Under the pieces are notes generated by a model, which saw nothing but the letters and a program-made list of their open reading frames with translations, searched no databases and had not been told where the DNA came from. This document shows, one piece after another, positions 332 to 50,188 of a DNA stretch of 64,000 nt. The first letter of the stretch is position 1. Each line of letters begins with the position of its first letter. Origin of the DNA: an uncultured Pseudohongiella sp. (lineage in GTDB: Bacteria; Pseudomonadota; Gammaproteobacteria; Pseudomonadales; Pseudohongiellaceae); assembly GCA_965198435.1 (NCBI GenBank), contig OZ240664.1, positions 966,675 through 1,030,674 on the forward strand, in the 5' to 3' direction. The position numbers and the translations under genes are program-made.

Positions 332-471
332 GGAACCTCTGGTTAATTACCTACGTTGTTATTGCTGCGTTAAAAATCAGCTCAAAATGCGCATTTATGA
401 CCTATAAGCTGCGCTTTTTCGCTGACTTTTGCCTTGCACTAACTGCCTCGCAAACATTAATCAGAGGCTCC
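332..471 (+). mobile_element. MITE-A copy A1 (140 bp, orientation F)
   Basis: GGAACCTCTG..CAGAGGCTCC with a flanking TTAG/TTAG direct repeat. Lies 21 bp upstream of the EncFtn-like start codon. Confidence 0.9.
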
Positions 472-512
472 TTAGTCTGTTTTTAGCATTCTAATCCACA
501 GCAACTCGAACT

Positions 513-734
513 TTAACTGGAAAGCAGCGGGTAGCTTGCAAGCACGTCTCGAAATGTGCGCCTGAACTGAATTTTAGCACTTTCCTCATGCACATATTCA
601 CCAGGCACAACTTGATAAACACGGCTTATTATTCTTCGCCAGATTTCACTGCCAGACTCAGTTTCAGAAATGAGTATGTCGATGATGGCAGCATAGTTTA
701 TCTTAATCTCAGTTGTCATGCTTTCAATTCGCAT
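513..734 (-). CDS. hypothetical small protein (weak)
   Basis: ORF only. No family recognised and the surrounding 472-1130 region looks decayed. Confidence 0.2.
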   Translation of the reverse strand: MRIESMTTEIKINYAAIIDILISETESGSEIWRRIISRVYQVVPGEYVHEESAKIQFRRTFRDVLASYPLLSS

Positions 735-1130
735 AAACGGATCGATGTCTTACTGATCACTGCACAAATTCACAGGGTTGTAATTCAGCATCACTGGAAT
801 ATCGTTGGTTTTATCATTTCGCGTAACACTCTTCTCCAGGAAAGCAGCATCAAATTTGGCAACGAGATAATCCTCGAGAGAATTAGGACTATCGTTCGCG
901 GTAAGCCTGTAGCTTGTGTAGGAAGCATAGCTCTCCGGACAACAAAGAAGTTAGATCAGCACTGATCCGGCCTGCATTTGTATTACAAGCAGCTATAGAA
1001 AAATAAGCCTGATAAAAGTAATAAGCGACCTTTCAATAGGGCACCTCTGTATCTGATGTATCTGAAAATATGTGCTCCCTTATTACATTCTAAAGTGAGG
1101 CGATATTTACATATTGACCCAGCTTAAACA

Positions 1131-1715
1131 TTAACGACCTATCGTTTTGCGCATTTGTTCAGCCAATTCTGGATTACTGCCCTGGGCGAGCTGATCAATG
1201 ACGTTTAATCGGTCTGCAAGTGGCCGATTTTGGCTTAGTTTATATTTACACTGAATACTATCGACTTCAATCTCTACCCCAACGATTGCACTCAACATTT
1301 TTAAATCGAATTCACTATCCCATGAGGGGCTGCGCCCTTGTTCATAATTTGAGCTAAGGGTTTTCACCAGCTCCAGCAACCGATCTTTTTCTGTAAAGCA
1401 GCGCGCAACACCTGATATGTGTACTGCTTGATAGTTCCAGGTGGGAACGCCTGGGTTTTCATACCAGGTTGGACTTATATAGCTATGATTTCCAGGAAGA
1501 ACAATTAAGACTTTCTGCCCGTCCAGGTTCTGCCATTGCGGATTAGCTTTCGCCAGGTGCGCTTGAATCAGATTTTCAGAGGCGCGATTGAATGGCAGAT
1601 GCGTAGCAAAGGGTAAGCCATTTACTTGTGAAATAAGGATGCCGAAATCGTTTCTCTGGATAAACTCATCAATTTCAGCGGTGTCATTAACCGCGAAATG
1701 GTGGGGGACAAACAT
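1131..1715 (-). CDS. PaiB-family FMN-binding negative transcriptional regulator
   Basis: 194 aa. The N-terminus MFVPHHFAVNDTAEIDEFIQRNDFGILIS is typical of the PaiB family. Confidence 0.7.
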   Translation of the reverse strand: MFVPHHFAVNDTAEIDEFIQRNDFGILISQVNGLPFATHLPFNRASENLIQAHLAKANPQWQNLDGQKVLIVLPGNHSYISPTWYENPGVPTWNYQAVHISGVARCFTEKDRLLELVKTLSSNYEQGRSPSWDSEFDLKMLSAIVGVEIEVDSIQCKYKLSQNRPLADRLNVIDQLAQGSNPELAEQMRKTIGR

Positions 1716-1766
1716 ATCATATTCCGAATACTGTGATTGGGTTGCTGCTTCGTTGCTGTGACTGCG

Positions 1767-2540
1767 TCATTTCACAAACTCAAAGAAGCGGTTCGTCGTT
1801 GCGCTGCCATCTGCATCGAAATTCTGTTCATTGAATCGTACTCTTCCAGACGATTCCATAATAACCGCAGTGGAGCAACGGGTACCATACTCTCTCCGGG
1901 TGTTATGTATGAATGCTGCGGATAGTTCACGTTCCAGTTCCATAGGCACTCCTGTCTGCGGCAGTTCTGCATCTTGCGCTTGCTGGGTATCACCCATCAT
2001 CGCGATAAGAGCGTCTGTGCTTAATTGCTCCGGTGATTGAACCAGCGTTTCCAGTTTCAATCGGCTACGCACTACTTTGGGCCAATCGTTGTTCAGTAGA
2101 CCATTAGACAATCCATAAATCCCTGGCTCCAGTTGCCGCGTGACAGCCTCGAAGTTATTCACGTAGTACATCGATTCACTGTCGCTAACGATCAAATTGA
2201 ACCCAGCGAATTGATCTAGCTTTAGACTTTCTGCATAGTCTGCAGCCGATTGCCCTGATTGTAAGAAATCCAAGGTCAATTCTCCTCGTGAACGGGGTTT
2301 CTGTTCGGGTTGAGATGGATCTCGGATATTGGTTACTGCGGCAAATCTCCCGGCGCGATTGATACCAAGCCAGGTACCACCAGCCTGCAAATCCTTGCCT
2401 GCCAATACCTGCGTGGTGCCAGCATTGTCAGCCCAGAAATCTGCATGTTGGGTAGGTCGGGGGAAGAATTCGTCCCGATTTGCTGCCAGCACCAGTGGAT
2501 AAGCAGTTACAGCCTGATGGGCGAAAACGATAAGACACAT
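1767..2540 (-). CDS. NRDE (TANGO2/DUF833) family protein
   Basis: 257 aa. Has the MCLIVFA N-terminus and the AANRDEF motif characteristic of the NRDE family. Confidence 0.75.
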   Translation of the reverse strand: MCLIVFAHQAVTAYPLVLAANRDEFFPRPTQHADFWADNAGTTQVLAGKDLQAGGTWLGINRAGRFAAVTNIRDPSQPEQKPRSRGELTLDFLQSGQSAADYAESLKLDQFAGFNLIVSDSESMYYVNNFEAVTRQLEPGIYGLSNGLLNNDWPKVVRSRLKLETLVQSPEQLSTDALIAMMGDTQQAQDAELPQTGVPMELERELSAAFIHNTRREYGTRCSTAVIMESSGRVRFNEQNFDADGSATTNRFFEFVK

Positions 2541-2541
2541 T

Positions 2542-2778
2542 AGGGCCTGTTCACACTAATTGAGTGGCCTCTGCTAGAGGGCATTTTTGCGTTCAGCAAG
2601 GCAGAAAGAGTGCCGTATATAAATATATAAACGATTGATAACGAAGCTGGGCGCAAAAAAGCGCCACTTGTCGTTGCTCGTCGCTCATTCGGAATCACCA
2701 AACTACGCCCCTCGCCGCGCCTCAATTGGCGCTTTTTTAGTCTCAACAGAGATCACTCCATTAGTGTGAACAGGCCCT
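2542..2778 (+). mobile_element. MITE-B copy B1 (237 bp)
   Basis: Terminal inverted repeats AGGGCCTGTTCACACTAAT / ATTAGTGTGAACAGGCCCT (19 bp perfect, about 36 bp imperfect). The left end abuts the ATG of the NRDE gene. Confidence 0.85.
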
Positions 2779-2902
2779 GGTTAAATGGTAGCGGTTAATT
2801 TCCTGCGGTTGAAGCAAACTTGATATACTGGACGGAAATTTTAAACCATTATTGAGCCTTTATCGTGTTCCTGGCACGCTCTTTAGCCCAGCCAATCAGT
2901 TG

Positions 2903-3703
2903 ATGCTGACCTATCCTCAATTTGATCCCGTCGCATTATCACTCGGACCAATAAACATTCATTGGTACGGGATCATGTATATCATCGCTTTTGGCGGTGC
3001 CTGGGTATTGGCATCCTATAGAGCCAAAAGAGTTGAAGAATCCTGGACCTCTGAACAAATCTCCGATCTCGTGTTCTATGGCGCTTTGGGAGCAGTGCTT
3101 GGAGGACGACTAGGATCAGTCTTTTTTTATAACTTTGGTCAGTTTCTCAACGATCCCCTGTGGTTGTTTCGTGTCTGGGAAGGTGGGATGTCTTTTCATG
3201 GGGGCTTTCTGGGTGTTCTGGTCGCACTCTACTTTTACACCTGCAGTATCAATAAAGATTACTGGCGCACAATTGATTTTATTGCGCCACTCGTACCGTT
3301 CGGTTTAGGTGCGGGTCGTTTAGGTAACTTTATAGGCGGAGAGCTTTGGGGTAAGCCAACCGAAGTAGCGTGGGGCATGGTTTTTCCCCATGTTGACCAA
3401 CTGCCGCGTCACCCTTCACAGTTGTATGAAGCTGCCTTTGAAGGTGTGGCTCTTTTTATCATTGTGTGGTGGTTTTCATCAAAGCCCAGACCAAGATTGG
3501 CAGTTTCAGGTGTGTTCGCTGTGGGTTATGGGTGTTTCAGATTTCTTATTGAATTCTTCCGCGAGCCGGATGGTCATATCGGCTATATCGCTTTCGATTG
3601 GTTAACTATGGGCCAGGTGCTTTCTGCACCGCTCATAATTGTGGGTGTAGTGTTTCTGCTCTTGGCTTATCAACAGCCGGATTCGGTTGCTGACACCCGG
3701 TAA
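2903..3703 (+). CDS. lgt: prolipoprotein diacylglyceryl transferase
   Basis: MLTYPQFDPVALSLGPINIHWYGIMY resembles the E. coli Lgt N-terminus. I chose the ATG at 2903 over the TTG at 2852 used by the ORF track. Confidence 0.9.
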   Translation: MLTYPQFDPVALSLGPINIHWYGIMYIIAFGGAWVLASYRAKRVEESWTSEQISDLVFYGALGAVLGGRLGSVFFYNFGQFLNDPLWLFRVWEGGMSFHGGFLGVLVALYFYTCSINKDYWRTIDFIAPLVPFGLGAGRLGNFIGGELWGKPTEVAWGMVFPHVDQLPRHPSQLYEAAFEGVALFIIVWWFSSKPRPRLAVSGVFAVGYGCFRFLIEFFREPDGHIGYIAFDWLTMGQVLSAPLIIVGVVFLLLAYQQPDSVADTR

Positions 3704-3731: not shown

Positions 3732-3871
3732 GGAGCCTCTGATTAATGTTTGCGAGGCAGTTAGTGCAAAGCAAAAATCAGCGAAAAAGCGCAGTTTATA
3801 GGTCATAAATGCGCATTTTGAGCTGATTTTTAACGCAGCAATAACAACGTAGGTAATTAATCAGAGGTTCC
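3732..3871 (-). mobile_element. MITE-A copy A2 (140 bp, orientation R)
   Basis: GGAGCCTCTG..CAGAGGTTCC with TTTA/TTTA flanks. Lies between lgt and thyA, both on the plus strand. Confidence 0.9.
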
Positions 3872-3896: not shown

Positions 3897-4748
3897 ATGT
3901 ATCAATATCTGGCTCTCTGTCAGCGCATAGTTAACGAAGGCGTCTGGGTTGAAAACGAACGAACTGGTAAGAAATGTCTGACAGTTGTTAATGCTGATCT
4001 GACTTATGACGTTGCCAATAATCAGTTTCCAATAATTACAACTCGCAAGAGCTATTGGAAAGCGGCTATAGCCGAACTATTGGGTTACTTGCGAGGCTAT
4101 GACAATGCAGCTGATTTTCGTGAACTTGGCACCAGATCCTGGGATGCTAACGCTAATCAAAATGAAGCCTGGTTAAAAAATCCTGTGCGTAAAGGTGATG
4201 ACGATATGGGCCGAGTCTATGGTGTGCAGGGAAGGAGTTGGCAAAAGCCCGATGGATCTACTATCGATCAGTTACAAAAAATTGTCGATAACCTGCAGCG
4301 TGGTATTGATGACCGCGGAGAAATATTAACATTTTATAACCCCGGGGAATTCGATCTAGGCTGCCTCAGGCCATGTATGCACACCCATAATTTCTCTTTG
4401 CTGGGAGACACGCTGTTCTTGACCAGTTATCAGCGCTCCTGTGATGTGCCTTTGGGACTGAACTTCAACCAAATACAGGTCTTTACATTGTTGGCTTTGA
4501 TGGCGCAGATTATCGGTAAAAAACCAGGCATGGCTTATCACAAGATCGTGAATGCCCACATCTACGAAGATCAACTGGCGTTAATGGAAGCCGTGCAACT
4601 CAAGCGTGAGCCTTTTGATCCACCGCAACTGCATATCAATCCAGATATAAAATCATTGGAAGACTTGGAGATCTGGGTAACTCTGGATGATTTTAGTGTT
4701 GAAGATTATCAACACCACGACCCTATCGCTTACCCGTTTTCTGTTTAA
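3897..4748 (+). CDS. thyA: thymidylate synthase
   Basis: 283 aa with conserved ThyA motifs (RSx[12 protein letters not shown]-type active-site Cys region). Confidence 0.95.
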
Positions 4749-4772: not shown

Positions 4773-5330
4773 ATGAATCTATCGCTCATCTGTGCCATGG
4801 CTGAGAATCGAGTTATTGGCAAGAACAATAGCTTACCGTGGCATCTACCGCAGGACCTCAGGTACTTCAAAGCAACAACTATGGGGCATTGCATAATTAT
4901 GGGTCGAAAAACCTGGGAATCTATCGGCCGAGCCTTACCAGGTCGAACAAGTATCGTGGTCACGAATCAAGAAGACTATGAAGCGGAAGGCGCGAAAGTA
5001 GTCCACTCATTACCCGATGCTATTCGACTTGCTGAAAGCATCGCTATAATTGACGGCTCTGAGGAAGCATTCGTGATTGGTGGAGCAGGTTTGTATGCAG
5101 CAGCGATTCCTTATGCACAGCGCTTTCACTTAACCCGGATACATGCGGTGGTAGAGGGAGATACTCAGCTTCAAAAATTCGATGAGACTGAATGGACTGA
5201 ACTGAGCAATGAGTATTTCGAAAAAGATGAAGCCAATCCATTTGATTACAGTATCTGCGTACTTGAGCGTCGTCAGCAGCTACAACAGAGCTATAACAGT
5301 GGCGATTCAACCAGTGTTAACAGGCTCTAG
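4773..5330 (+). CDS. folA: dihydrofolate reductase
   Basis: MNLSLICAMAENRVIGKNNSLPWHLPQDLRYFK is a DHFR signature. The short C-terminal extension overlaps the argA stop. Confidence 0.9.
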   Translation: MNLSLICAMAENRVIGKNNSLPWHLPQDLRYFKATTMGHCIIMGRKTWESIGRALPGRTSIVVTNQEDYEAEGAKVVHSLPDAIRLAESIAIIDGSEEAFVIGGAGLYAAAIPYAQRFHLTRIHAVVEGDTQLQKFDETEWTELSNEYFEKDEANPFDYSICVLERRQQLQQSYNSGDSTSVNRL

Positions 5331-6661
5331 CCTAATGCCTTCAGCATTACCTTTGACTTACGCTGTAAGTTGTAAAGCTGCTGCCTGGCCTGCGGCAATG
5401 CATCCACGCTGGATTCCTGATACGCATTTTCCAGGAAGAAATGAGACGCCTCAGTCGTTAGACTGAACAGTCTAGTCAGGCCTTGTCCTTTGGCGGTTTG
5501 CTCCAGGCTTTCCAGCAGTCGTTTACCTAAACCCTTATTTCGATATTCTGGATGGATCGCAATACAGGCTATTTCGCCACTATCTTCGGCAGCGGGATAG
5601 AGTGCCGCGCAGGCGATTACAGTATCTTCCAGCTCTATCACCTGAAAATTTTCAATTTCAGTTTCCAATAACTCGCGTGAGCGTGTAACCAGGGTTCCGG
5701 ATTCTTCCAATGGTTTGATCAGCGCAAGAATTCCACCCACATCTTCTATATTGGCGCTACGCAGGTGATCAATGCTGTCGCTACTGAGTAAGCTTCCTCT
5801 GCCATCCCTGGTGAATAATTCCAGCAACATCGCACCGTTTTCCTTATAGCTAATCAGGTGAGTGCGATGCACGGCACTGGCATTGGCTTTGATGGCGGCA
5901 GCTAAAGCCTTGGCAGTGAACTGTGAATCAGAATCGTGACCAGCCTGCAGCAGATCTAAATAGTGTTGGGCAGTCTGTTCAGTTAGCGCGCTAATCAATG
6001 ATCCGTCTGTATCTGGCACTCCTGTAGTGGGGACCATCAAGATTAACTTATCTGCTTCCAGTGCTATCGCTGCTTCGGTAGCCACTTCGTCTGCGGAAAG
6101 ATTAAATACTTCACCGGTCACTGAGTAACCGAGGTTTGATAACAGCACTATATTACCCGCATCCAGTTGTTGATCGATGGCATCCTTCTGGATCTTTCTC
6201 ACTTTCCCGGTGTAATGAAAATCCGTTCCATCGCGTACGCCAACCGGTTTGCTCATTATAAAATTGCCCCGGCATACATTGATGTTGGAGCCATGCATAG
6301 GTGAATCTCGCAAACCTTTAGAAAACAGTGCTTCGAGTTTGGCACTTAATGCACCTGAAGTGGCAGTAATGGTTTGCATCGCGCTGGCTTCAGTAACACG
6401 CAAGTCCTGACTAAATTCTGTGAACAGGCCAGCCGCTTCCAATGCCACAGAAATTTGGGGGCGCGCACCATGCACAATGACCAGGCGGACTCCCAGGCTT
6501 TGCAACAGGCTGAGGTCAAAAACAATATTGGGAAGGTTATCATCAGCCATGGCTTCACCACTGAGAAATACCACAAAGGTTTTTCCACGATGTGCGTTGA
6601 TATAGGCCGTGGAAGCTCTAAACCAATCAACTATTTGCCTGTCCTGTTTATCGTTTGCCAT
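5327..6661 (-). CDS. argA: amino-acid N-acetyltransferase (N-acetylglutamate synthase)
   Basis: 444 aa with an amino-acid-kinase-like N-domain plus a GNAT C-domain, which is the typical ArgA architecture. Confidence 0.9.
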   Translation of the reverse strand: MANDKQDRQIVDWFRASTAYINAHRGKTFVVFLSGEAMADDNLPNIVFDLSLLQSLGVRLVIVHGARPQISVALEAAGLFTEFSQDLRVTEASAMQTITATSGALSAKLEALFSKGLRDSPMHGSNINVCRGNFIMSKPVGVRDGTDFHYTGKVRKIQKDAIDQQLDAGNIVLLSNLGYSVTGEVFNLSADEVATEAAIALEADKLILMVPTTGVPDTDGSLISALTEQTAQHYLDLLQAGHDSDSQFTAKALAAAIKANASAVHRTHLISYKENGAMLLELFTRDGRGSLLSSDSIDHLRSANIEDVGGILALIKPLEESGTLVTRSRELLETEIENFQVIELEDTVIACAALYPAAEDSGEIACIAIHPEYRNKGLGKRLLESLEQTAKGQGLTRLFSLTTEASHFFLENAYQESSVDALPQARQQLYNLQRKSKVMLKALG

Positions 6662-6677
6662 TTTTTAAATTACTTAA

Positions 6678-6817
6678 GGAACCTCTGATTAATTACCTAC
6701 GTTGTTATTGCTGCGTTAAAAATCAGCTCAAAATGCGCATTTATGACCTATAAACTGCGCTTTTTCGCTGATTTTTGCCTTGCACTAACTGCCTCGCAAA
6801 CATTAATCAGAGGCTCC
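6678..6817 (+). mobile_element. MITE-A copy A3 (140 bp, F)
   Basis: TTAA/TTAA flanks. Lies 16 bp upstream of the argA ATG and 9 bp downstream of the argE stop. Confidence 0.9.
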
Positions 6818-6826: not shown

Positions 6827-7981
6827 TTATCGTTCGATACAATTTCGAATGATTAGCTGTTTAACTATACCCACTGCTGGTTTGAGTATATCCAATGAAA
6901 GGTATTCATCCGGTTGATGAGCCTGCTCAATGTGGCCTGGGCCCATAATGATGGTGTCCATTCCAAGCTCTTGCAGATAAGGCCCTTCGGTTCCAAATGC
7001 CACACTGATGCCGCTATGGCCTGTCAGTTCTTCAGCAGTTTTCAGTAACTCACTATTCTCATTAGCAAAGAAAGCTGGCACACCGGTAAATTTCTTTACC
7101 AGTTCAAATTTCAATCCCAGCGGTTTTGCAATTGTTTCAACTCTTTTTTCGATATCGTTGCGCACTGTATCCAGATGCATGCCCGGCATCAACCTGATAT
7201 CAAACTGCAATTCGCAATGCCCACAGATTCGATTGGGGTTATCACCCCCATGAATACTACCCAGGTTAAGGGTAGGGTAGGGAATCTCAAATAGTGGGTT
7301 TTGGTACTTCTGTTTCAACTCTTCTCTGTAAATCATTAGCTCTGAAATGACTGTGTGCATTCCTTCCAATGCATTGCGACCCAGGCTCGGATCAGATGAA
7401 TGTCCACTCTGTCCTGATAATTTTATGGCATCCATCAAAATGCCTTTGTGGGTTTGTACCGGCTTAAGACCTGTAGGTTCACCTATTAGTGCTGCTCTGG
7501 CACGAGGCTTACCCATTTCTGCCAAAGTCTTTGCGCCCTCCATGGAAGTCTCTTCATCTGCGGTAGCAAGAATGATCAGTGGTTCTTTATAGTCTGCTTC
7601 ACCAATTTCTTTGATGGCTTCCATAACAATAGCAAAGAAGCCTTTCATGTCTGTTATGCCGAGGCCCAATAGCTTTCCATCTTGTTCCGTGACGCTAAAT
7701 GGATCAGTAGCCCAAAGATCATTATCGAAAGGCACAGTGTCAGTATGACCAGCCAGTACTAATCCACCCGGGCCACTACCCTTTGTTGCAATCAGATTTA
7801 CTTTTCCTTCAGAAGCGCAAGGGACGACCTCATTGCTAAAGCTCAGGGTCTCAAGTTTTTCGGCGAGGTGTTCGACGATCGACAAGTTACTCATGTCCAA
7901 TTCCGAATTGGTAGAACTCACGCTCGGAATCTGAACGACTTGTTGAAGTCCGCTTATTAAGTCAGGAAACGACTGTAACAT
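6827..7981 (-). CDS. argE: acetylornithine deacetylase
   Basis: 384-aa M20 peptidase-family protein with an ArgE-like sequence (LAGHTDTVP, GEPT). Confidence 0.85.
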   Translation of the reverse strand: MLQSFPDLISGLQQVVQIPSVSSTNSELDMSNLSIVEHLAEKLETLSFSNEVVPCASEGKVNLIATKGSGPGGLVLAGHTDTVPFDNDLWATDPFSVTEQDGKLLGLGITDMKGFFAIVMEAIKEIGEADYKEPLIILATADEETSMEGAKTLAEMGKPRARAALIGEPTGLKPVQTHKGILMDAIKLSGQSGHSSDPSLGRNALEGMHTVISELMIYREELKQKYQNPLFEIPYPTLNLGSIHGGDNPNRICGHCELQFDIRLMPGMHLDTVRNDIEKRVETIAKPLGLKFELVKKFTGVPAFFANENSELLKTAEELTGHSGISVAFGTEGPYLQELGMDTIIMGPGHIEQAHQPDEYLSLDILKPAVGIVKQLIIRNCIER

Positions 7982-8034: not shown

Positions 8035-8174
8035 GGAACCTCTGATTAATTACCTACGTTGTTATTGCTGCGTTAAAAATCAGCTCAAAATGCGCATTTA
8101 TGAGCTATAAACTGCGCTTTTTCGCTGATTTTTGCCTTGCACTAACTGCCTCGCAAACATTAATCAGAGGCTCC
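8035..8174 (+). mobile_element. MITE-A copy A4 (140 bp, F)
   Basis: Flanks are CTAG/CTGG (1 mismatch). Lies downstream of the phhB-like gene. Confidence 0.9.
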
Positions 8175-8207: not shown

Positions 8208-8570
8208 CTAAGCGGGTGCAGACAGTTTTGCAATCATGTCGGTTTTGGCGGCCATAATAAAATCATTCACATGAAGGCCATTGATTCGATGCGTCCACCA
8301 GTAGACAGTGACCTTTCCCCATTCTGTGAGGATACCTGGGTGATGATCTTCTCGATCGGCAAGATTAGCGATCTTGTAAGTAAAATTGAAGGCATCTTTA
8401 AATTCCACAAAATGGAATTCACGAATCAGCTTTTCCACGCCGTCGTGAAACTCCCGTTTCCATGCAGGCACTGCTGGAAGAAGTTGATTAGCTTCTTCTT
8501 TTGTCACCACGGGAGCACCTAATCCACAGGGCTCGCAGCGACGCTTATACAATTGTTCTGCATTACTCAA
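8208..8570 (-). CDS. phhB: pterin-4a-carbinolamine dehydratase
   Basis: DHHPGILTEWGKVTVYWWTHRINGLHVNDFIMAAKTD is the PCD signature. The only in-frame start is the TTG at 8570, immediately after an in-frame TAA. Confidence 0.8.
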   Translation of the reverse strand: MSNAEQLYKRRCEPCGLGAPVVTKEEANQLLPAVPAWKREFHDGVEKLIREFHFVEFKDAFNFTYKIANLADREDHHPGILTEWGKVTVYWWTHRINGLHVNDFIMAAKTDMIAKLSAPA

Positions 8571-8574: not shown

Positions 8575-8714
8575 GGAACCTCTGATTAATTACCTACGTT
8601 GTTATTACTGTGTTAAAAATCAGCTCAAAATGCGCATTTATGCCCTATAAACTGCGCTTTTTCACTGGTTTTTGCCTTGCACTAACTGCCTTGCAAACAT
8701 TAATCAGAGGCTCC
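8575..8714 (+). mobile_element. MITE-A copy A5 (140 bp, F)
   Basis: TTAA/TTAA flanks. The element end is 4 bp upstream of the phhB TTG start. Confidence 0.9.
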
Positions 8715-10516: not shown

Positions 10517-11116
10517 TCAGCCTCTGGTGATGTGATAGATCGCAATTTCGCCTAACAGGTTAGGCCAGTACTTCATTGCCCAGCTTCCCTGGTGCTGAGA
10601 ATCCACTACTGTACGCGTTAGCACTCGAATATCCATGTTTTTACAAAGCGCATCGAAATCCTTCACCGTACAAAAGTGAATGTTCGGTGTGTTGTACCAT
10701 TGATGGGGCATAAATTTACTAACAGGCATACGGCCTTTGGAGGCTAAATAGAGGCGACTCTTCCAGTTGCCGAAATTCGGAAACGTCACAATGCCATTTT
10801 TGCCAATGCGCAGCATTTCTTTCACCAGTTCCTGCGGGTTGCTCAGTGCCTGAAGTGTTTGCGTCAGCAACACGGTATCAAAACTATTGGATTGAAAGTT
10901 ATCCAATCCATTGTCGAGGTTTTGCTCGATAACATTGACGCCGTTGTCAATACATTGCTCAATGTTCGCCGCATCGATTTCGAGGCCAATGGACTTCACT
11001 TCCTTAGTCTCATTTAGAAAATGTAATAAGCTACCATCACCGCAGCCCAGATCGAGCACACGGCCATTCGGCTCAATCCATTGTTGGATAATTTCGAGGT
11101 CAGGGCGCATCTTCAC
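10517..11116 (-). CDS. metW: methionine biosynthesis protein MetW
   Basis: 199 aa with a VLDLGCGDG methyltransferase-like fold. Overlaps metX as in metXW operons. Confidence 0.9.
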
Positions 11117-41224: not shown

Positions 41225-42154
41225 ATGAATCGACTTCGCATTGCAACTCGAGAAAGCCCACTGGCCCTTTGGCAAGCTCACTATGTAAAGACAGCTTTAC
41301 AGGCGCAGCATAAAGAGCTAGCTGTGGAGTTAGTACCCATGACAACCCGAGGAGATCAGATACTGGATTCTCCTTTGGCCAAAGTTGGCGGCAAAGGCTT
41401 GTTCGTTAAGGAACTTGAATGTGCAATGTTGGCTGATGAAGCTGACATCGCTGTGCATTCGATGAAAGATGTACCTATGGAGTTTCCTGATGGTTTGGGT
41501 TTGGCTGTAATTTGCGAACGCGAAGACCCGAGCGATGCCTTAGTTTCCAATCAATATCAGAGCCTGGATGCTTTGCCTGAAGGTGCCAGAGTCGGAACAT
41601 CCAGTTTTCGGCGACAATGCCAACTTAAACGGCTGCGTCCTGACCTTACAATTCTGGATTTACGTGGCAATGTCGGCACTCGTTTATCAAAACTGGATGC
41701 CGGTGATTATGATGCAATCATCCTTGCCGCCGCTGGCTTATTACGATTGGAGTTATCTGACCGAATTGTGCAACGTCTGGATAGTGATCTTGTATTGCCT
41801 GCAGGTGGGCAGGGAGCAATTGGCATCGAGTGTCGTACAGAAGACATTAAAATACTGCAGTTAGTGGATTGCCTTCATCACGGTGGAACCGCGTCTCGGG
41901 TAACCGCCGAACGTGCCGTGAATGCTAAACTGCAAGGAGGCTGTCAGGTACCTATTGCCAGTTTTGCTGAATTAAGGGGGGACAATTTGTATCTTCGTGC
42001 ATTAGTAGGGTCTTTGGATGGAAGTCAGATTTTACGTACGGAGCGATTAGGTAACATGCATGATGCTGAACAGCTTGGCATTCAAGCTGCTGAAGACTTG
42101 TTAGCACAGGGAGCCGGTAAGATTCTTGAATCAATCTCAGCACCGGCTGATTAA
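41225..42154 (+). CDS. hemC: hydroxymethylbilane synthase (porphobilinogen deaminase)
   Basis: [15 protein letters not shown] .. GNVGTRL signature, 309 aa. Confidence 0.9.
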
Positions 42155-42966
42155 TGGCAATGGCAAAAAGAGAAACAGGCATTGGTGAGTTATCCGCACT
42201 AACGGTGCTTGTAACACGGCCAGCCCATCAACAAGAAAGTCTTGTTCATTCAATAGAAAATCTAGGTGGTAAAACCATCAGTATGCCGCTTATTGATATC
42301 TTTCCTTTGTCTGAAGATGAAATCATAAGGACCTCATCGAATGCCATTAAGAATCTCGATCAGTTCGAGACACTCATTTTTGTAAGCAGCAATGCGGCGC
42401 GCATTGGTGGTGAAATGATCGACGCCTACTGGCCACAATTTCCAGCAGGCATTACTGTCATTGGTATTGGCCAAACTACATCGCGTGCTACCGTGGAGTG
42501 GCTGAATTGTTCTGTGGTAACGCCAGATCAGGGAAATGATAGTGAAGCGGTGCTGGCACTCCCTGAACTGCAAGAGGTTGCCGAGAAACGGATAGGAATA
42601 GTATGTGGAATAGGCGGTAGAGAATTACTCGCCAATGAACTATCCAGGCGCGGTGCAATAGTTGAAATCATCGAGGTATATTGCCGGGAGTCTCGTCATT
42701 ACAATCCAGAACAAGTCAATGAGTTACTTATGGATTCTGCTTGTAATTCAATAACCGTTCATAGCGGCGAGTCATTGCAACAGTTGATCGCATTGAGTGG
42801 AAATAACATAAGCCGGATCTCTCTGTTACCATTAGTGGTGCCATCCGCCAGAGTGCAAAATCACGCTCAAGAGGCTGGCTTCTCAAGAGTTATTAATGCT
42901 GTGGGCGCTGATGATCGGGCAATGACTCAAGCTCTGCAGCAAATTGCTGCAGACCGTGTTTTATAG
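42154..42966 (+). CDS. hemD: uroporphyrinogen-III synthase
   Basis: 270 aa overlapping the hemC stop. HemD-like (VLVTRP) and in the hemCDXY context. Confidence 0.8.
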   Translation: MAMAKRETGIGELSALTVLVTRPAHQQESLVHSIENLGGKTISMPLIDIFPLSEDEIIRTSSNAIKNLDQFETLIFVSSNAARIGGEMIDAYWPQFPAGITVIGIGQTTSRATVEWLNCSVVTPDQGNDSEAVLALPELQEVAEKRIGIVCGIGGRELLANELSRRGAIVEIIEVYCRESRHYNPEQVNELLMDSACNSITVHSGESLQQLIALSGNNISRISLLPLVVPSARVQNHAQEAGFSRVINAVGADDRAMTQALQQIAADRVL

Positions 42967-42980: not shown

Positions 42981-43194
42981 GGAAGCTCTGATTAATGTTG
43001 GCGAGGCAGTCGGTGCACCAAAAGTAGCCGCTTCAGGCGAGGCAAAAATCGGCGAGCCGAAGTGTAGCGAAAACGGCACCCGCAAGGTGAGCAGCTTTAG
43101 CTGCGTAAAAAGCGCAGCTAATAACGCATAAATACGCACTTTGAGCTGATTTTTAACGCAGTAATGGCAACGCAGATAATTAATCAGAGGTTCC
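42981..43194 (-). mobile_element. MITE-A copy A12, divergent long variant (214 bp, R)
   Basis: Canonical ends (GGAAGCTCTGATTAAT .. ATTAATCAGAGGTTCC) with CTAA/CTAA flanks. About 74 bp of extra G+C-richer internal sequence includes a second GCGAGGCA segment. Confidence 0.8.
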
Positions 43195-43233: not shown

Positions 43234-44343
43234 GTGGCAGATAAACCGGAAACGCCAAAAATTCTTGAAGAAATATCTAAGGGAACCAATCCTAAATCTA
43301 GCGGAGGAAGTTCCCGTTCGCAAAAAAATGCCCGTCGTCGGTTTCTGATAATCCTGTTGTTGTTTCTACCTCTTGTGGCAGGTATGGCCTATTTAGGTTA
43401 TACCCAATTTAATTTACTCACAGAGCTGGCAGACCTGCAGCAGCAAAATGCTACCCTCAATGAGTCTGTGGCCGGGTATCAAACAGAACTTACTTCACTG
43501 CGCTCTCAAATAAATAGTATGCCTGAGCAAGTTACCGTAGACACAGGAGCTATAGATGCCTTGTCTTCCAGACTCGGCACAGATATTGACATGCTTGCTC
43601 AAGAAATTGTCCGGCTTGATGCTCAGCAATCAAAGATTGCGACGCCGCAAAATAGCCAATGGAAAATCTTTGAAGCAAACTATTTTGTTCAGTTGGCTAA
43701 TCGTAAACTGCAATTAGAAGGTGATTCGCTATCAGCCATTGAGTTGTTAGAGAAAGCAGATGCCGCATTATTGGAATCGGGATCCAACGCCGTGTTGCGA
43801 GCACGGCAGGCATTAGCCGACGACATTGCCATGTTAAGAGTTTTGGAACTGCTCGATAGGGAAGGCTTATTCATTCGAATTGATAATTTGAGTGATCAGA
43901 TTAGCGGGATTGATCTGTTAACTTCCATGCGTGAAAGGTTGCAAAATCGATCTGAGTCAACTGATCAGCAATCAGACTCTGAGACTTCAGGATTTATCGA
44001 TAGCAGTATGGCGTTTCTTAGCAGTGTGTTTGTGTGGCGAACCTGGGAAGACTCGCCAGAAGCAATGTTGGCGTCAGGCCAGGAAGCAATCATACAGCAG
44101 CGCGTTCAGTTATCAGTGGAGCAGGCTAAAGTCGCCTTACTCAATAGCAACGCCGCACTTTATCAACGCAGCCTGGGTGACATTTCTGACTGGATTCGGC
44201 AATACGCGACTTCTGACTCTGTTGCCGGGCAGCAAGTGTTAGCTGAACTGGCAGAACTGATGCAGATTGAAATCGATTCAGCATTGCCAGAACTCAGCCA
44301 ATCAATGGCTTCCTTGCAACAACTCACGGCGACACTGCAATAA
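43234..44343 (+). CDS. hemX: HemX family protein (uroporphyrinogen-III C-methyltransferase-annotated)
   Basis: 369 aa with an N-terminal TM segment and a coiled-coil-rich body. Position after hemD. Confidence 0.75.
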   Translation: MADKPETPKILEEISKGTNPKSSGGSSRSQKNARRRFLIILLLFLPLVAGMAYLGYTQFNLLTELADLQQQNATLNESVAGYQTELTSLRSQINSMPEQVTVDTGAIDALSSRLGTDIDMLAQEIVRLDAQQSKIATPQNSQWKIFEANYFVQLANRKLQLEGDSLSAIELLEKADAALLESGSNAVLRARQALADDIAMLRVLELLDREGLFIRIDNLSDQISGIDLLTSMRERLQNRSESTDQQSDSETSGFIDSSMAFLSSVFVWRTWEDSPEAMLASGQEAIIQQRVQLSVEQAKVALLNSNAALYQRSLGDISDWIRQYATSDSVAGQQVLAELAELMQIEIDSALPELSQSMASLQQLTATLQ

Positions 44344-44349: not shown

Positions 44350-45606
44350 ATGATTAGGCTGTTCATACTCAGTTTACTTGCTATCGTACTTGCGCTTTGG
44401 GTAACGCTTTATGTTGGCTTCCCAACTGATCCTGGTTATCTCCTGATCGCTTTCGGTAATGTCACATTTGAAACCAGTTTGTTTGCGTTATTGGTGGCAG
44501 CCGTCGTGCTTTATGCCACCGCTAGAATTCTGTTACTCGTTCTGCACTGGGTCAATCCGATGAAGTTGTTGGCAGTTGGGCGCGAGTTGAATTCGCAGCG
44601 CAAGGCCAGGGCACGAAGTAATACTACAGAAGGTTTACTGGCCTTAGCACGTGGAAACTGGCAGGCGAGCCTTAAGTTCTTACAAAAAGGCATCACGGAA
44701 AAGGACGCGACTGTTGTAAACAACCTGGCTGCTGCCTATGCCGCGCATCAATTAGGTCACCGAGACACCTGGGTTGAACTGTTAGAATCGGCTGAAGTTA
44801 ATTACCCTACTGCCCGCTCAACCATCAATTATGTGAAGGCACAACTACATTTTAAATCTGGTCAACTGGAACAAAGTCTTGCAGTTCTTGAAGAACTGAA
44901 AAAAAATGCCCTGAACGATGGCAATTTGCTTGGCCTGTTAAAAGAAGTATATGTGCAACTTGATGACTGGCAGCACCTGGAGGGGTTACTGCCAAGTCTG
45001 GAGAAGAGCAAGTTACTGGACAGTGAAGACCTCGTTCGTATTCAGAAACGCATCTTCATGGAAAAACTGTATGCATGCTTTAATACTGTCAATGGCGGTG
45101 ATAGCAACGCGTTAGGAGAAATGAAAACGCTCTGGAAAAAAGCGCCGACCAGTTTTCAAAAAGACGGGAAGGTTGTTTCCCATTATGCTGATCTGCTCAT
45201 TCAGTTAGGGGAAAAACAAGACGCAGCGAAAACCATAGAAACGGCTTTGAGTAGAATCTGGGATTCTAACCTGGTTCAGTTGTACGGCGCTAAGGAATAT
45301 GGGATCAGTGCGCAACAGCTATTGGTAGCCGAGAATTGGTTAAAAGCGAATCCTGCTGATGCGGCGCTATTGCTGAGTTTGGGGCGTATCAGTATGCGCA
45401 ACCAATTGTGGGGAAAGGCAAAAGAGTACTATGAAGCGAGTATTAAAATTACTCCATCCGCTGAAGCCTACGGCGAACTCGGCCGTCTCATGAAACATCT
45501 AGGCGATATTGAAGCGAGTGAAGCGTATTTAAAAAACTATGGAGACTTGATGGGGTCTTCTCTTCCAGAGTTGCCGATGCCTAATCCAGATCAGGTAACT
45601 CATTAG
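44350..45606 (+). CDS. hemY: HemY family protein
   Basis: 418 aa with two N-terminal TM segments plus TPR-like repeats. Position after hemX. Confidence 0.8.
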   Translation: MIRLFILSLLAIVLALWVTLYVGFPTDPGYLLIAFGNVTFETSLFALLVAAVVLYATARILLLVLHWVNPMKLLAVGRELNSQRKARARSNTTEGLLALARGNWQASLKFLQKGITEKDATVVNNLAAAYAAHQLGHRDTWVELLESAEVNYPTARSTINYVKAQLHFKSGQLEQSLAVLEELKKNALNDGNLLGLLKEVYVQLDDWQHLEGLLPSLEKSKLLDSEDLVRIQKRIFMEKLYACFNTVNGGDSNALGEMKTLWKKAPTSFQKDGKVVSHYADLLIQLGEKQDAAKTIETALSRIWDSNLVQLYGAKEYGISAQQLLVAENWLKANPADAALLLSLGRISMRNQLWGKAKEYYEASIKITPSAEAYGELGRLMKHLGDIEASEAYLKNYGDLMGSSLPELPMPNPDQVTH

Positions 45607-45629: not shown

Positions 45630-45770
45630 GGAGCCTCTGATTAATGTTTGCGAGGCAGTTAGTGCAAGGCAAAAATCAGCGAAAAAGCGCAGTTTATAGG
45701 TCATAAATGCGCATTTTGAGCTGATTTTTAACGCAGCAATAACCAACGTAGGTAATTAATCAGAGGTTCC
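45630..45770 (-). mobile_element. MITE-A copy A13 (141 bp, R)
   Basis: Flanks GTAG/TTAG (1 mismatch). The ubiD stop codon (TAA, 45771-45773) directly abuts the element. Confidence 0.9.
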
Positions 45771-47243
45771 TTAGTCTTTATCGATTCCCAGCTCTTCCCA
45801 TAGTTCATCAACGCGGGCTTTTACTTCATCACTCATGGTAATGGGTTTGCCCCATTCTCGTTCTGTCTCAGCAGGCCATTTATTGGTGGCATCCAATCCC
45901 ATCTTGGAGCCTAGTCCAGCCACCGGTGAAGCGAAATCAAGATAATCTATCGGGGTATTGTCGATCATAACGGTATCGCGAATTGGATCCATTCGGGTTG
46001 TGATTGCCCAGATGACATCTTCCCATTGTCGAATATCCACATCATCATCAGCGACAATGATAAATTTTGTATACATGAACTGTCGTAAAAAAGACCACAC
46101 GCCCATCATGACCCGCTTGGCATGACCGGGATACTGTTTCTTCATACTCACAATTGCGAGTCTGTAGGAACAGCCTTCAGGAGGCAGATAGAAATCGACA
46201 ATCTCTGTAAACTGTTTTTGTAATAAAGGCACGAATACTTCATTTAACGCGACCCCCAGCATTGCAGGCTCATCTGGCGGACGACCGGTGTAGGTACTGT
46301 GATAGATAGGATCTTTGCGATGGGTTATTCGAGTTACCGTAAATACTGGAAACTGTTCAGTTTCATTATAGTAACCAGTATGGTCACCATAGGGTCCTTC
46401 TTCAGCAGCCTCATCTGGATGAATAACACCTTCCAGCACAAACTCCGCACTTGCCGGTACTTGCAAGTCATTAGTTTGTGATTGCACTACTTCTGATTTG
46501 CTGTTTCTCAATAAGCCCGCGAAGGCATATTCAGACAAAGTGTCCGGTACCGGTGTCACTGTGGCGAGAATCGTCGCCGGGTCAGCACCTATTGCGATAG
46601 AAACAGGAAATGGTTCGCCGGGATGCTGCAGTTGCCAGTCACGGAAATCCAATGCACCACCACGGTGGGATAGCCAACGCATGATCAGCTTATTCTTCCC
46701 AAGCAGCTGCATGCGGTAGATACCGAGATTCTGCCGTTCTTTTTCAGGCCCTTTAGTAATGACCAACGGCCACGTCACCAGCGGCGCCACATCGCCAGGC
46801 CAACAGGTTTGAATAGGCAGCTGAGTGAGATCAATTGCATTGCCCTCGACTACGATCTCCTGACACGGTGCAGACTTTTTTACTGCAGGAGAAATGTTTA
46901 AAACATTTTTATAGCTCGGCAGACTTTGCCAGAGATCTTTCCAGCCGGAAGGGGGCGAGGGCTCCTTTAAGAAAGCTAATAATTTGCCAACGTCTCTTAA
47001 TCCTTCCAGATTTTCTTGCCCCATTGCCAGTGCGATACGGCGAGTATTGCCAAACAAGTTCGCAAGCAGAGGAATTGATGACCCTTTGGGATTTTCAAAT
47101 AACAATGCAGGGCCACCAGACCGCAAAGTACGGTCTGATATTTCAGTAATTTCGAGGTAAGGATCAACTTCAGCAGAAATGCGTTTAAGTTCGCCTTCCT
47201 GCTCCAGAAGTTCGATGAAGTCGCGCAGATCTTTGAATGCCAT
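45771..47243 (-). CDS. ubiD: 4-hydroxy-3-polyprenylbenzoate decarboxylase
   Basis: 490-aa UbiD-family sequence throughout. Downstream of rho, as in E. coli. Confidence 0.9.
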
Positions 47244-47294: not shown

Positions 47295-48554
47295 TTACTT
47301 GCGCTTCATTGCGTTGAAAAATTCATCATTGGTTTTAGTATCTTTGAGTTTATCGAGTATGAATTCGGTAGCTTGCACGTCTTCCATTGAACTTAATAGC
47401 TTGCGCAAAATCCACATGCGTTGCAGTTCTTCTTCCGTGGTCAGTAAATCTTCGCGACGTGTGCCGGAGCGACGAACATTAATAGCTGGATAAACACGTC
47501 TCTCTGCAATCTTACGGTCCAGGTGAAGTTCCATGTTACCAGTGCCCTTAAATTCCTCGTAGATGACTTCATCCATCTTTGACCCTGTTTCAATCAAAGC
47601 AGTGGCAACAATACTCAGGCTACCTCCCTCTTCGAGATTTCGAGCAGCACCGAAGAAACGCTTGGGACGCTCTAACGCATGAGCGTCAACACCACCGGTG
47701 AGTACTTTGCCAGATGAAGGCACGATTGTGTTGTAAGCACGGGCCAGTCGGGTAATCGAATCGAGAAGAATCACAACATCTTCTTTGTGCTCCACCAAAC
47801 GCTTGGCCTTTTCAATTACCATCTCCGCAACTTGAACATGACGTGAAGGTGGTTCATCAAAAGTACTCGCAACGACTTCTCCACGAACAGAGCGTTGCAT
47901 CTCTGTGACTTCTTCCGGGCGCTCATCAATCAGCAGCACTATCAATCGGCACTCTGGGTTATTGCGCGTTATTGATTGTGCGATGTTTTGCAGAATGAGT
48001 GTTTTACCAGCCTTGGGAGGAGAGACAATCAAGCCTCTCTGGCCCTTACCAATTGGAGAAGTCAGGTCTATTACTCTTGCGCTTAGATCTTCTGTGCTGC
48101 CGTTGCCAACTTGAAGTTCGAGACGGTCTTGTGGGAAAAGTGGGGTAAGGTTTTCGAAAAGTATCTTGTTTTTTGAGGCTTCTGGTTTGTTGAAGTTGAT
48201 TTCTGAAATCTTCAACAGAGCAAAATATCTTTCACCGTCTTTTGGAGGTCTGATCTTACCAGCAACGGTATCACCCGTCCGTAAATTGAATCTTCGTATC
48301 TGGCTAGGTGAGACATAAATATCGTCTGGGCCTGCCAAATAAGATGAGTCGGCTGATCGTAAAAATCCGAATCCATCTTGCAGTATTTCAAGTACGCCAT
48401 CGCCATAGATGTCTTCGCCATTCTTGGCATGTTTCTTAAGAATGACAAAGATGATGTCTTGTTTGCGAGTTCGGGACACATTGTCCAAACCCATTTCATG
48501 GGCTGTTTTGATTAATTCAGCAATTGGTTTTTGCTTGAGTTCGGTCAGGTTCAT
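47295..48554 (-). CDS. rho: transcription termination factor Rho
   Basis: 419 aa. MNLTELK.., Walker A PPKAGKT and the RNA-binding domain are all highly conserved. Confidence 0.95.
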
Positions 48555-48672
48555 AGTTGAAGATCTTTCAGAAAGTGTAAAAGAGTAATTCGGCGATTCG
48601 TCATCGCGTATTGCGAATGCATCTACATTGAAGTGTCATAACTCATACGATAAAAACTTTAGATAAAGCTAA

Positions 48673-48825
48673 AGAACCTCTGATTAATTACCTACGTTGT
48701 TATTGCTGCATTAAAATGCTGCATTAAAAATCAGCTCAAAATGCGCATTTATTAGCTATAAACTGCGCTTTTTCGCTGATTTTTGCCTTGCACTAACTGC
48801 CTCGCAAACATTAATCAGAGGCTCC
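48673..48825 (+). mobile_element. MITE-A copy A14 (153 bp, F)
   Basis: CTAA/CTAA flanks. Has a 13-bp internal duplication (GCTGCATTAAAAT) and the left-end variant AGAACC. Lies 118 bp upstream of the rho ATG. Confidence 0.9.
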
Positions 48826-49017
48826 CTAAGGGTAAATTAAGAAAAATTTGTGTGATTAAAAAAAGAAGTTATTGCTGAAACTGCTTAATAATTCTGTAGA
48901 CATTTACTTGAACCTTGTTTGGGCTATTGGTTCTTCTACGGCAGTGCTTTAATTTTTAATGCACTGGTACATTGCTGGATTCGAATTTTCTAATTCTTAT
49001 TAGTTTTTAGTGTCTAC

Positions 49018-49044
49018 TTAATCGTGTTAATCGTGTTAATCGTG
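49018..49044. repeat. 3 x 9-bp tandem repeat TTAATCGTG
   Basis: Perfect triplication in the trxA-rho spacer. Confidence 0.9.
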
Positions 49045-49118
49045 CCGCTGATCTTTTGTTTTCTAATCTTATAATCTACCGCTTACAAACTTTATGTTCC
49101 ATCAGCTCGAATATGGCA

Positions 49119-49153
49119 CTTTTTTCTTTTCTTTTTTTCTTTCTTTCCTTTTC
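49119..49153. repeat. 35-nt polypyrimidine (plus strand) / polypurine (minus strand) tract
   Basis: CTTTTTTCTTTTCTTTTTTTCTTTCTTTCCTTTTC contains only C and T. Confidence 0.9.
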
Positions 49154-49494
49154 GGGCTATTCCGACGAATCGAATCAATGCACAAATTCTATTTCAACAG
49201 ATTTCGACTGCCTAGAGTTAAATTTTATCTACTGTGTATATTCGCCGGACAATGCGAACTCAACAGGAATTTACGGTGTATGGCCAGGGTTTCTGTTCTG
49301 GTTTTGGTGGAAGTTAAGAGAGAATTTCGCTAAAAATTCAGGCACTTCCACTTCTTTTTGGTGTCCCGCAGGTAGCGATACACTGCCATTAAACGCAATT
49401 TAGTAATCGCTGTCAATAAATCCTGGGGCTGGAATTCATGGCCCTGACCTATTTTTTCAGTACCGATTCCAGCCTTTGATGCAGCGTTAAGTCT

Positions 49495-49845
49495 CTAGGC
49501 ATCGGGGGCTGCATCCAGGGGCAGCACACTGTCAATAAATGCAGACAGTTGAGATTTAGAAAGAGCACCGACTTTTTCGCCGACTTTTTCACCGCCGTTA
49601 AAGACGATTAATGTAGGAATTCCGCGAATGCCATATTTTGGTGCAGTCTCCGTGTTGGCATCGACGTCCATCTTGCAAACCTTCAATTTGCCATCGTACT
49701 CAACGGCTATCTCTTCCAATACAGGCGCGATCATTTTGCAGGGGCCGCACCACTCAGCCCAAAAATCAACAATTACGGGGCCTTCAGCTTGCAATACGTC
49801 TTGTTCAAAACGACTATCTGAGGTGTGAACGATATTGTCGCTCAT
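49495..49845 (-). CDS. trxA: thioredoxin
   Basis: 116 aa with the WAEWCGPCK active site. Confidence 0.9.
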
Positions 49846-50048
49846 GCGTCACTTCCTTTCCTATGGGATTAAATTAACGGGGTAACCAAGGCTGATTGGC
49901 CAGGCGTTTTGTACTATATCCTTTATCCTTTGTAATCAATCTGTTGCTGGCCCGAATTGATAACTGGTCATTAATAATAAGGGCATATTCGGAGGATTCA
50001 AGGGCTGGTGGAGTACACTCAATAGACCGAATAAATCAGACTATTTAA

Positions 50049-50188
50049 GGAACCTCTGATTAATTACCTACGTTGTTATTGCTGCGTTAAAAATCAGCTC
50101 AAAATGCGCATTTATGACCTATAAACTGCGCTTTTTCGCTGATTTTTGCCTTGCACTAACTGCCTCGTAAACATTAATCAGAGGCTCC
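50049..50188 (+). mobile_element. MITE-A copy A15 (140 bp, F)
   Basis: TTAA/TTAA flanks. Lies 13 bp downstream of the hemB stop. Confidence 0.9.

Follow-up and report, generated by a model that had tools for sequence, protein, structure and literature searches.

A hairpin MITE of an uncultured Pseudohongiella lies in one orientation relative to transcription across 64 kb

Why should a short mobile element, present many times in one stretch of DNA, always point the same way as the genes around it? This question is raised by a 64,000-nt stretch (hereafter the window) from an uncultured Pseudohongiella sp. (assembly GCA_965198435.1, contig OZ240664.1, positions 966,675 to 1,030,674), which carries 16 copies of a repeat that we call MITE-A, after its apparent nature as a miniature inverted-repeat transposable element (MITE). 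An initial annotation of the window had described the orientation of MITE-A as locked to the direction of local transcription. We examined the orientation, the anatomy and age of the copies, and the behavior of related elements elsewhere, and we weigh the explanations that could account for the pattern.

Orientation of MITE-A relative to flanking genes

A 26-mer search of the window identified 16 sites, with 0 expected by chance, each paired with a 3′ motif 140-214 bp away; this corresponds to a density of ~1 copy per 4 kb. The strand of a copy was defined as that on which GGAGCCTCTGATTAATG... reads, and flanking genes were checked using NCBIfam/Pfam and a gene caller built on a codon model, whose performance had been validated on the window. 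At 13 of 13 sites between or within co-directional genes, A7 included, the strand reading GGAGCC... is the mRNA-sense strand (two-sided binomial p = 2.4e-4). The initial annotation had counted 12 informative sites, all in agreement, with a chance of 1/2048; the gene families and the gene caller confirm the flanking genes at these sites, and we recomputed the same two-sided value of 4.9e-4. The observation is thus confirmed as real and statistically sound within the window, a sample that makes up 1.8% of the 3.5-Mb host genome, a single contig of 3,515,178 bp to which the window proteins belong.

Comparison of the strand of the element with that of its genes (plus at 3 sites, minus at 10, with 0 discordant) gave p = 0.0035 in Fisher's exact test, which also controls for a bias toward one strand or toward replication. 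Four plus-strand copies are scattered among twelve minus-strand copies and adjoin plus-strand genes, while cumulative GC skew is negative over the whole window. A lock to replication direction is therefore ruled out, and the orientation tracks transcription, as had been proposed. At eight of the 13 co-directional sites the spacer is no more than 86 nt once the element is subtracted (e.g. lgt-thyA, argE-argA, lysA-dapF, hemD-hemX and the pair of glycosyltransferase genes).

The copies are given below with flanking genes in order of transcription (TSD, target-site duplication).

A1, 332-471, minus strand, 140 bp, TSD CTAA: 3′ end 20 nt upstream of an encapsulin-associated ferritin-like gene (24-311, minus); next verified upstream gene PaiB-like, flavin mononucleotide-binding (1131-1715, minus), 660 nt off.
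A2, 3732-3871, plus strand, TSD TTTA: lgt (2852-3703, plus), then thyA (3897-4748, plus), with gaps of 28 and 25 nt.
A3, 6678-6817, minus strand, TSD TTAA: argE (6827-7981, minus), then argA (5327-6661, minus), with gaps of 9 and 16 nt; identical to the consensus.
A4, 8035-8174, minus strand, flanked by CCAG and CTAG: phhB (8208-8570, minus), then argE (minus).
A5, 8575-8714, minus strand, TSD TTAA: hemW (8782-9930, minus), then phhB (minus).
A6, 12309-12448, minus strand, TSD CTAA: yggT (12477-13076, minus), then metX (11100-12299, minus), whose ATG is only 9 nt from the element end.
A7, 17677-17827, minus strand, 151 bp, including an additional 11-bp TAGGTAATTAA unit: 3′ end of ruvX (17817-18266, minus), of which it supplies the last three codons and the TGA stop; downstream on the same strand, a remnant of an IS481-family insertion sequence (IS).
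A8, 22358-22544, plus strand, 187 bp: rhamnosyltransferase gene (21446-22357, plus), whose TAG stop falls in the TSD, then glycosyltransferase gene (22556-23488, plus).
A9, 29645-29784, minus strand, TSD CTAA: lysA (29797-31056, minus), then dapF (28771-29631, minus).
A10, 31497-31636, minus strand: divergent spacer between the lysA side (minus) and an ATP-binding cassette (ABC) transporter ATPase gene (31660-32592, plus).
A11, 37790-37929, minus strand: within a UbiE-like methyltransferase gene (remnants 37503-38434, minus), upstream of an ompR-like regulator gene (36686-37417, minus).
A12, 42981-43194, plus strand, 214 bp, divergent composite with nested hairpin modules, TSD CTAA: hemD (42154-42966, plus), then hemX (43234-44343, plus).
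A13, 45630-45770, plus strand, 141 bp: convergent spacer between hemY (44350-45606, plus) and ubiD (45771-47243, minus), whose stop codon falls in the TSD.
A14, 48673-48825, minus strand, 153 bp: long trxA-rho spacer, 118 nt upstream of the rho start (47295-48554, minus).
A15, 50049-50188, minus strand, TSD TTAA: hemB (50202-51212, minus), then trxA (49495-49845, minus).
A16, 59975-60114, minus strand: convergent spacer next to a D-aminoacylase-like amidohydrolase gene (60121-61719, minus).

The two copies set aside as uninformative, A10 (divergent) and A13 (convergent), remain so, and A7 agrees with the rule as stated. Some details required correction. A16 had been placed in the 3′ end of the D-aminoacylase gene; it starts 6 nt past the stop codon, outside the gene, and faces a convergent phage virion-morphogenesis gene (58936-59421, plus). 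The annotated interval, which ended at 50188, omitted this copy. A11 had been treated as a copy between genes; it interrupts the methyltransferase gene, which is intact in a related species, and is in the sense orientation relative to the gene that it disrupts. A1 and A14 lie ~660-670 nt from their upstream genes, and the plus-strand open reading frames (ORFs) 588-965 and 49056-49403, which could contradict these two sites, had no family match and failed the coding score.

Structure and classification of MITE-A

MITE-A is ~140 bp long, has 16-bp terminal inverted repeats (TIRs), GGAGCCTCTGATTAAT ... ATTAATCAGAGGTTCC, in all copies, and is noncoding, with stop codons in all six frames. Apart from the composite A12, window copies share 96-100% identity with the consensus. 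Across 26 copies from the window and from the related contigs described below, the target duplication is a 4-bp YTAR (TTAA, CTAA, TTAG or CTAG) that differs between copies and is identical on both flanks of most of them; no extended or asymmetric target motif was found in these 26 copies. Read in the element-sense orientation, CTAA and TTAG are used roughly equally. Thus the target sequence is not what sets the orientation, and we rejected target-directed orientation on this ground. The two ends of the element differ (GGAGCC versus GGAACC), and so do the subterminal sequences.

MITE-A is small, noncoding and multicopy, with TIRs, a varying target duplication and, as shown below, empty sites in a relative. 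Because of the 4-bp YTAR duplication and the termini, we class it as a probable IS5-type MITE of the MITEPsy1 kind, a non-autonomous transposon; the IS5 inverted repeat is presumably GGAAGGTGCGAATAAG. No IS bearing the MITE-A TIRs was present in the window or the fetched loci, and a consensus scan detected no promoter inside MITE-A. A search of Rfam 15 yielded no match for the window at gathering thresholds and only chance-level hits (E > 2) in a permissive search.

MITEPsy1 of P. syringae (Bardaji et al. 2011, PMC3189936) is 100 nt long, occurs in 6 copies per genome, and has the TIR GGAAGGTCTGAAAAAGCC and a 4-nt duplication of CTAG or YTAA. Its transposition was demonstrated experimentally, with a trap such as sacB, and attributed to an IS5-family transposase, and the authors noted similar gammaproteobacterial sequences. 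The MITE-A termini resemble the printed MITEPsy1 TIR as judged by eye (GGAAGGTCTGAAAAAGCC versus GGAGCCTCTGATTAAT in MITE-A and GGAACCTCTGAAAAAGG in the superfamily described below), and both elements are short and noncoding. The likeness is one of termini and duplication. The elements differ in length (100 nt versus 140 nt) and abundance (6 copies versus ~1 per 4 kb), and no orientation bias was reported for MITEPsy1 (PMC3189936). One P. syringae plasmid copy, among several matches to the core only, is without the printed MITEPsy1 TIR. MITEPsy1 appears to be the closest described relative of MITE-A.

Other abundant repeats were also considered. The mycobacterial MIRUs, reportedly described by Supply and colleagues in 1997, are said to be intergenic operon repeats oriented with the operon, with small ORFs overlapping neighboring stops and starts; they are not transposons, being repeated directly in tandem and lacking both inverted termini and target duplications. 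The Neisseria Correia and pneumococcal BOX, RUP and SPRITE repeats have target duplications and transposase families different from those of MITE-A. ERIC/IRU repeats, to which the initial annotation had pointed while not recognizing the element, we take to duplicate TA and, without an alignment, to be unlike MITE-A in sequence. Because the MITE-A duplication is instead a 4-bp YTAR, we rejected MITE-A as an ERIC-like element; ERIC is not an Rfam family.

ERIC does resemble MITE-A in some respects. It is a ~127-bp hairpin MITE that is co-transcribed with flanking genes (Yersinia, De Gregorio et al. 2005, reviewed in PMC2229807), and its effect on the stability of upstream mRNA depends on how the element is oriented. 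It is found in both orientations, and the review's passages on ERIC describe no one-way genomic distribution (PMC2229807). Correia, BOX, RUP and SPRITE resemble MITE-A in their abundance, hairpin formation, MITE-like nature and transcription into mRNAs (PMC3049150). They differ in their termini, and MITE-A in this host fills operon spacers one way rather than being confined to convergent spacers.

Several copies depart from the basic structure. The 11-bp unit TAGGTAATTAA, with a stop codon in each of three frames, occurs twice in A7 and ~5 times in A8, and A14 has a 13-bp internal duplication (TTTTAATGCAGCA). In A9 the inner stem is changed on both strands (GCGCA to GTGCA and TGCGC to TGCAC), such that a C-G pair becomes U-A, a compensatory change. 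In long composite variants (214-275 bp) the arms enclose between one and three additional hairpin modules:

A12, 42981-43194 of the window
L001 (related contig), 15858-16074
L001, 17548-17800
L001, 19798-20050
L004 (related contig), 18441-18715

Recent and independent insertion

Two window proteins with close relatives in European Nucleotide Archive (ENA) contigs of another assembly led to a locus, L130, that is collinear with window positions 33967-56260 at ~83-88% nucleotide identity and is without any MITE-A. The sites of A11, A12, A13, A14 and A15 are empty in this locus (5/5 testable). Each break in the alignment coincides precisely with the element and 4 further bp, and the relative has a single target copy. 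These empty sites mean that the MITE-A insertions are recent and independent. MITE-A has been amplified recently and massively in the host lineage, with many copies in very short spacers of housekeeping operons. The long trxA-rho spacer is noncoding and conserved in the relative as well.

Rho, ThyA, UbiD, ArgA, ArgE and LysA of the window are each the sole member of their own 90%-identity cluster among ~15 billion proteins, indicating that the host lineage is isolated. The gene order of the window, whose GC content is 45%, we take to match that of Pseudomonas PA0386-PA0407.

IS1595-family transposase genes in the host genome are interrupted by antisense MITE-A (P0004/P0006; L005 11152-12088), with at least two copies sharing the same junction.

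The same element in related genomes

ORFs reading into MITE-A led to copies of the element in six contigs of one ENA metagenome assembly. These copies are 97-99% identical to MITE-A, with composite variants of 217-275 bp in addition. Between co-directional pairs of called genes, six are in the sense orientation (e.g. between dnaK and dnaJ and between lptD and surA) and three are antisense, one after pepN and two among hypothetical genes; the copies other than those used as search bait are divided 2:2. More distant homologues were found by BLAST against plasmids. On a Halomonas megaplasmid two long ORFs flank a copy in antisense, while one on a P. veronii plasmid is in the sense orientation and has the same interior with different terminal repeats. 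Both orientations are therefore possible for the element, and the word 'locked' holds for the 13 sites of the window and not for the relatives. The one-way rule belongs to this host, or to its variant of the element, and is not an inherent property of the family.

A protein search for tails in the frame-2 translation of MITE-A, in either orientation, returned only short, probably spurious ORFs. The 5′-end pattern of MITE-A had no match in one scan of metagenome contigs and one of viral contigs. One related contig (L006 7044-12738) has a type II CRISPR-Cas locus with an array and the genes cas9, cas1 and cas2, and a MITE-A copy lies ~900 bp upstream of this cas9.

A superfamily sharing the core

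The interior of MITE-A belongs to a much wider family. Its core, CGAAAAAGCG-S-AGTTTA-N7-TAAATGAGCATTTTGAG, flanked by AAGGC and AAC, matched at least 120 contigs in one metagenome scan (loci L009-L128), for example:

L103, 5047-5087
L014, 3069-3109

Members are ~140 bp long and have the same core and YTAR duplications, with arms that vary yet stay complementary and with at least four kinds of terminal repeats, including CAGGCCGTTGAAAAAC, GGGTACCTCTGAATAAT and GGAAGCGCTGAATAAT. A sequence-string literature search identified no paper containing the core, and a window copy had no Rfam match.

Between co-directional genes, as called by our own gene caller, the superfamily core agrees with transcription in 22 cases and disagrees in 17 (p = 0.52). 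The difference between the window (13:0) and the superfamily (22:17) is significant (Fisher p = 0.0045). Convergent spacers hold 27 of 73 superfamily copies (37%), compared with 14% of other spacers on the same contigs (chi-square p = 1e-7); the pneumococcal repeats are likewise enriched between convergent genes (PMC3049150). What emerges is a MITE superfamily of wide distribution, with a core that is both conserved and covarying and with a preference for convergent spacers.

Covariation was measured in an alignment of 62 diverse superfamily members. In this alignment 94% of cells are paired, a figure that drops to 78% in shuffles and to 33-41% on sliding of the partner column, and both sides have changed in 280 cells versus 86 expected. 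The hairpin thus appears to be maintained by compensatory changes. AAGGC and AAC, which are unpaired and not forced by the search pattern, are nearly invariant. The sense strand has more G than C in every member. In the inner helices (columns 53-60/145-152 and 79-87/129-138), with wobble counted on alifold-defined pairs, the sense strand has 50 G.U compared with 19 A.C (28 versus 8 sequences). Together with the invariant AAGGC and AAC, this excess hints that the fold of one strand may be under selection, even though the orientation of the family is random. The signal in the core could reflect constraints on RNA, on single-stranded DNA or on DNA bending.

One reading of these data, which we regard as quite doubtful, is that the core, which lies between helices covarying over more than 100 unrelated metagenome contigs, is a strand-specific structured RNA or single-stranded DNA module carried on IS5-type MITEs throughout Proteobacteria, and that the host variant is compatible with operons in the sense orientation only, for instance through a relay mini-ORF or an anti-polarity effect, so that spacers have become nearly saturated. 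If it were true, the RNA fold, and not the DNA ends alone, would decide where a mobile element can live.

RNA folds of the two strands

The initial annotation had suggested modeling the fold of both RNA strands, and the two do differ. Although the whole of MITE-A forms one long hairpin on either strand (z about -8.6 for both), the minimum free energy is -58.5 kcal/mol for the sense strand and -48.5 kcal/mol for the antisense strand, the sense fold being 10 kcal/mol stabler. Host copies carry an A-to-C change compared with relatives (TGAGC), which makes the inner stem GCGCA/UGCGC perfect. The TGAGC variant is present, at lower density, in the related genomes of ERZ25067590 and ERZ26052130. In the antisense RNA this inner hairpin (-7.9 kcal/mol, versus -2.1 kcal/mol in relatives) is followed by UUUUU (T score 3.93); the sense RNA, which is G-rich and C-poor, has AUUUUGAG after this hairpin. 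At its 5′ junction the sense RNA reads UAAGGAG-N10-AUG, a Shine-Dalgarno (SD)-like sequence and start codon that open a 20-codon mini-ORF ending in the apical loop, and its 3′ end has stops in all three frames (TAGGTAATTAA). Both the SD-AUG mini-ORF and the three-frame stops are also present in relatives that have antisense copies.

Proposed selection after insertion

To explain the one-way pattern we tentatively favor selection after insertion against antisense copies in co-transcribed spacers, an explanation that leads the others considered here while falling somewhat short of being probable. Both orientations occur with identical termini and the target is symmetric, so the pattern looks like the result of a filter; since the family elsewhere follows no such rule, wrong-way insertions have probably been weeded out. 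According to this explanation, insertion itself would be blind to orientation. A copy that places its antisense strand in a polycistronic mRNA would damage expression of the flanking genes and be lost, whereas sense copies would be nearly neutral and retained. The cause of harm that we prefer is the A-to-C change in the inner stem of the host copies, which may give the antisense RNA a terminator-like hairpin followed by U5. The filter may also be tied to the extreme copy number. Host copies differ from their unbiased relatives both in the A-to-C change and in density, which is ~30-fold that of typical carriers, two differences whose effects cannot be told apart within the window alone.

A number of results weigh against this explanation, and first against its preferred cause. 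By the d'Aubenton-Carafa score no hairpin on either strand reaches d > 0 (antisense best -13.6 to -16, sense -14.7), a consensus scan placed no terminator inside MITE-A copies, and in the superfamily the transcribed strand is no more terminator-like than the other strand. On these scores we rejected MITE-A as a rho-independent terminator, keeping termination as a weak idea for the host variant. A cause based on Rho and C-richness was rejected too, because the G-over-C skew and the purine richness are common to family members without orientation bias. Since no strand scores as a canonical terminator, the specific cis mechanism is weakly supported. In addition, antisense superfamily copies lie in spacers as tight as those of sense copies. 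Nor are co-directional sites depleted in the window, where they account for 13 of the 16 copies; purging half of the insertions should have depleted them. The host data, moreover, come from 64 kb of its genome.

Two copies indicate that an antisense element is not an absolute block. The 5′ end of A10 lies 23 nt from the start codon of the ABC transporter ATPase gene, and the mRNA of this gene must cross A10 or start within it, in antisense. The composite copy at L001 17548-17800 is similarly placed in a divergent spacer, with its 5′ end just upstream of the start of gdhA on the opposite strand; over the two copies this distance is 23-30 nt. The gdhA mRNA must likewise run antisense through the element or begin inside it.

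The counter-selection suggested in the initial annotation is accordingly still the best available explanation, while its terminator version is weak. If the pattern holds genome-wide, the host would offer a natural experiment, in which one 140-nt hairpin would have entered operon spacers hundreds of times, recently, independently and in a single orientation, with the family neutral in this respect elsewhere. The harm done by a transcribed hairpin would then be testable, as the two orientations differ by strand only and the variant by very few bases; harm might arise through termination, through Rho polarity, through RNase processing or through translational coupling.

Alternative explanations

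Four alternatives rank below selection after insertion. The first, which we consider unlikely, is a bias at the time of insertion, by which the host transposase or a host factor would integrate the element in a fixed orientation to the transcribing RNA polymerase, with R-loops, supercoiling domains or the differing ends as conceivable means. The absence of any exception among 13 sites in 64 kb fits such a bias, as do the undepleted co-directional spacers (13/16) and the distinct ends, GGAGCC and GGAACC with their subterminal sequences. It is difficult to reconcile, however, with copies of identical TIRs in both orientations in related genomes, with the 22:17 division in the superfamily and with the equal use of CTAA and TTAG targets. 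A TIR with a palindromic YTAR duplication is typical of DDE cut-and-paste transposition, for which we know of no transcription-oriented precedent; both points count against it.

Rather less likely is local sampling, i.e. a bias that is real but much weaker across the genome and uniform in the window by luck. The window covers a small part of the genome (the 1.8% given above), and orientations are mixed in related genomes. Luck must nevertheless contend with the binomial and Fisher probabilities of 2.4e-4 and 0.0035 and with the fact that both gene strands are represented.

Positive selection of a useful sense RNA, the second possibility raised in the initial annotation, is not borne out and we hold it to be improbable. 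The sense RNA would act as a 3′ stabilizer or processing site, or its mini-ORF would relay ribosomes, keep translation coupled and prevent Rho polarity. The UAAGGAG-N10-AUG with its 20 codons, the three-frame stops at the 3′ end, the stabler sense fold and the G.U excess over A.C (50 to 19) in the inner helices of the superfamily are all consistent with such a role. Yet 96-100% identity and empty sites look like a burst and not like gene-by-gene recruitment. Neither the Halomonas nor the P. veronii relative has conserved the mini-ORF, which is shortened in long variants, relatives with the same SD-AUG and triple stop still have antisense copies, and the superfamily has no orientation preference.

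Equally improbable is a copy-number-dependent avoidance of sense/antisense pairing, in which hundreds of sense hairpins would target antisense-bearing mRNA for degradation through a complementary loop and a 140-nt duplex, so that the minority orientation is purged: orientation does follow a dose-like trend (22:17 where one copy occurs per ~115 kb, 6:3 at one per ~19 kb, where non-index copies give 2:2, and 13:0 at one per 4 kb), but the trend comes from small samples and has the sequence variant as a confounder, folding within one molecule should win over pairing in trans, and the REP, ERIC and Correia hairpin repeats, to our knowledge, occur in both orientations with no such coherence.

Other features of the window

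The encapsulin-associated ferritin-like gene beside A1 (24-311) is a cargo gene at the window edge. A second, unrelated MITE-like family of ~245-290 bp with TIRs of ~35 bp has three copies in the window, all on the plus strand, one in a divergent and two in convergent spacers:

2541-2785, plus strand
15919-16185, plus strand
23482-23769, plus strand

The IS481-family element downstream of A7 is degenerate (16184-17448), with inverted repeats at 16184-16218 and 17411-17448 and transposase fragments at 16673-17234. A phage-like region at ~56400-59500 has a GC content of 0.51 compared with 0.45 and includes the virion-morphogenesis gene, of the Mu gpS type, that A16 faces. A16 lies at a synteny break, since synteny with a related genome (L131) stops exactly at the stop codon of the amidohydrolase gene beside it.

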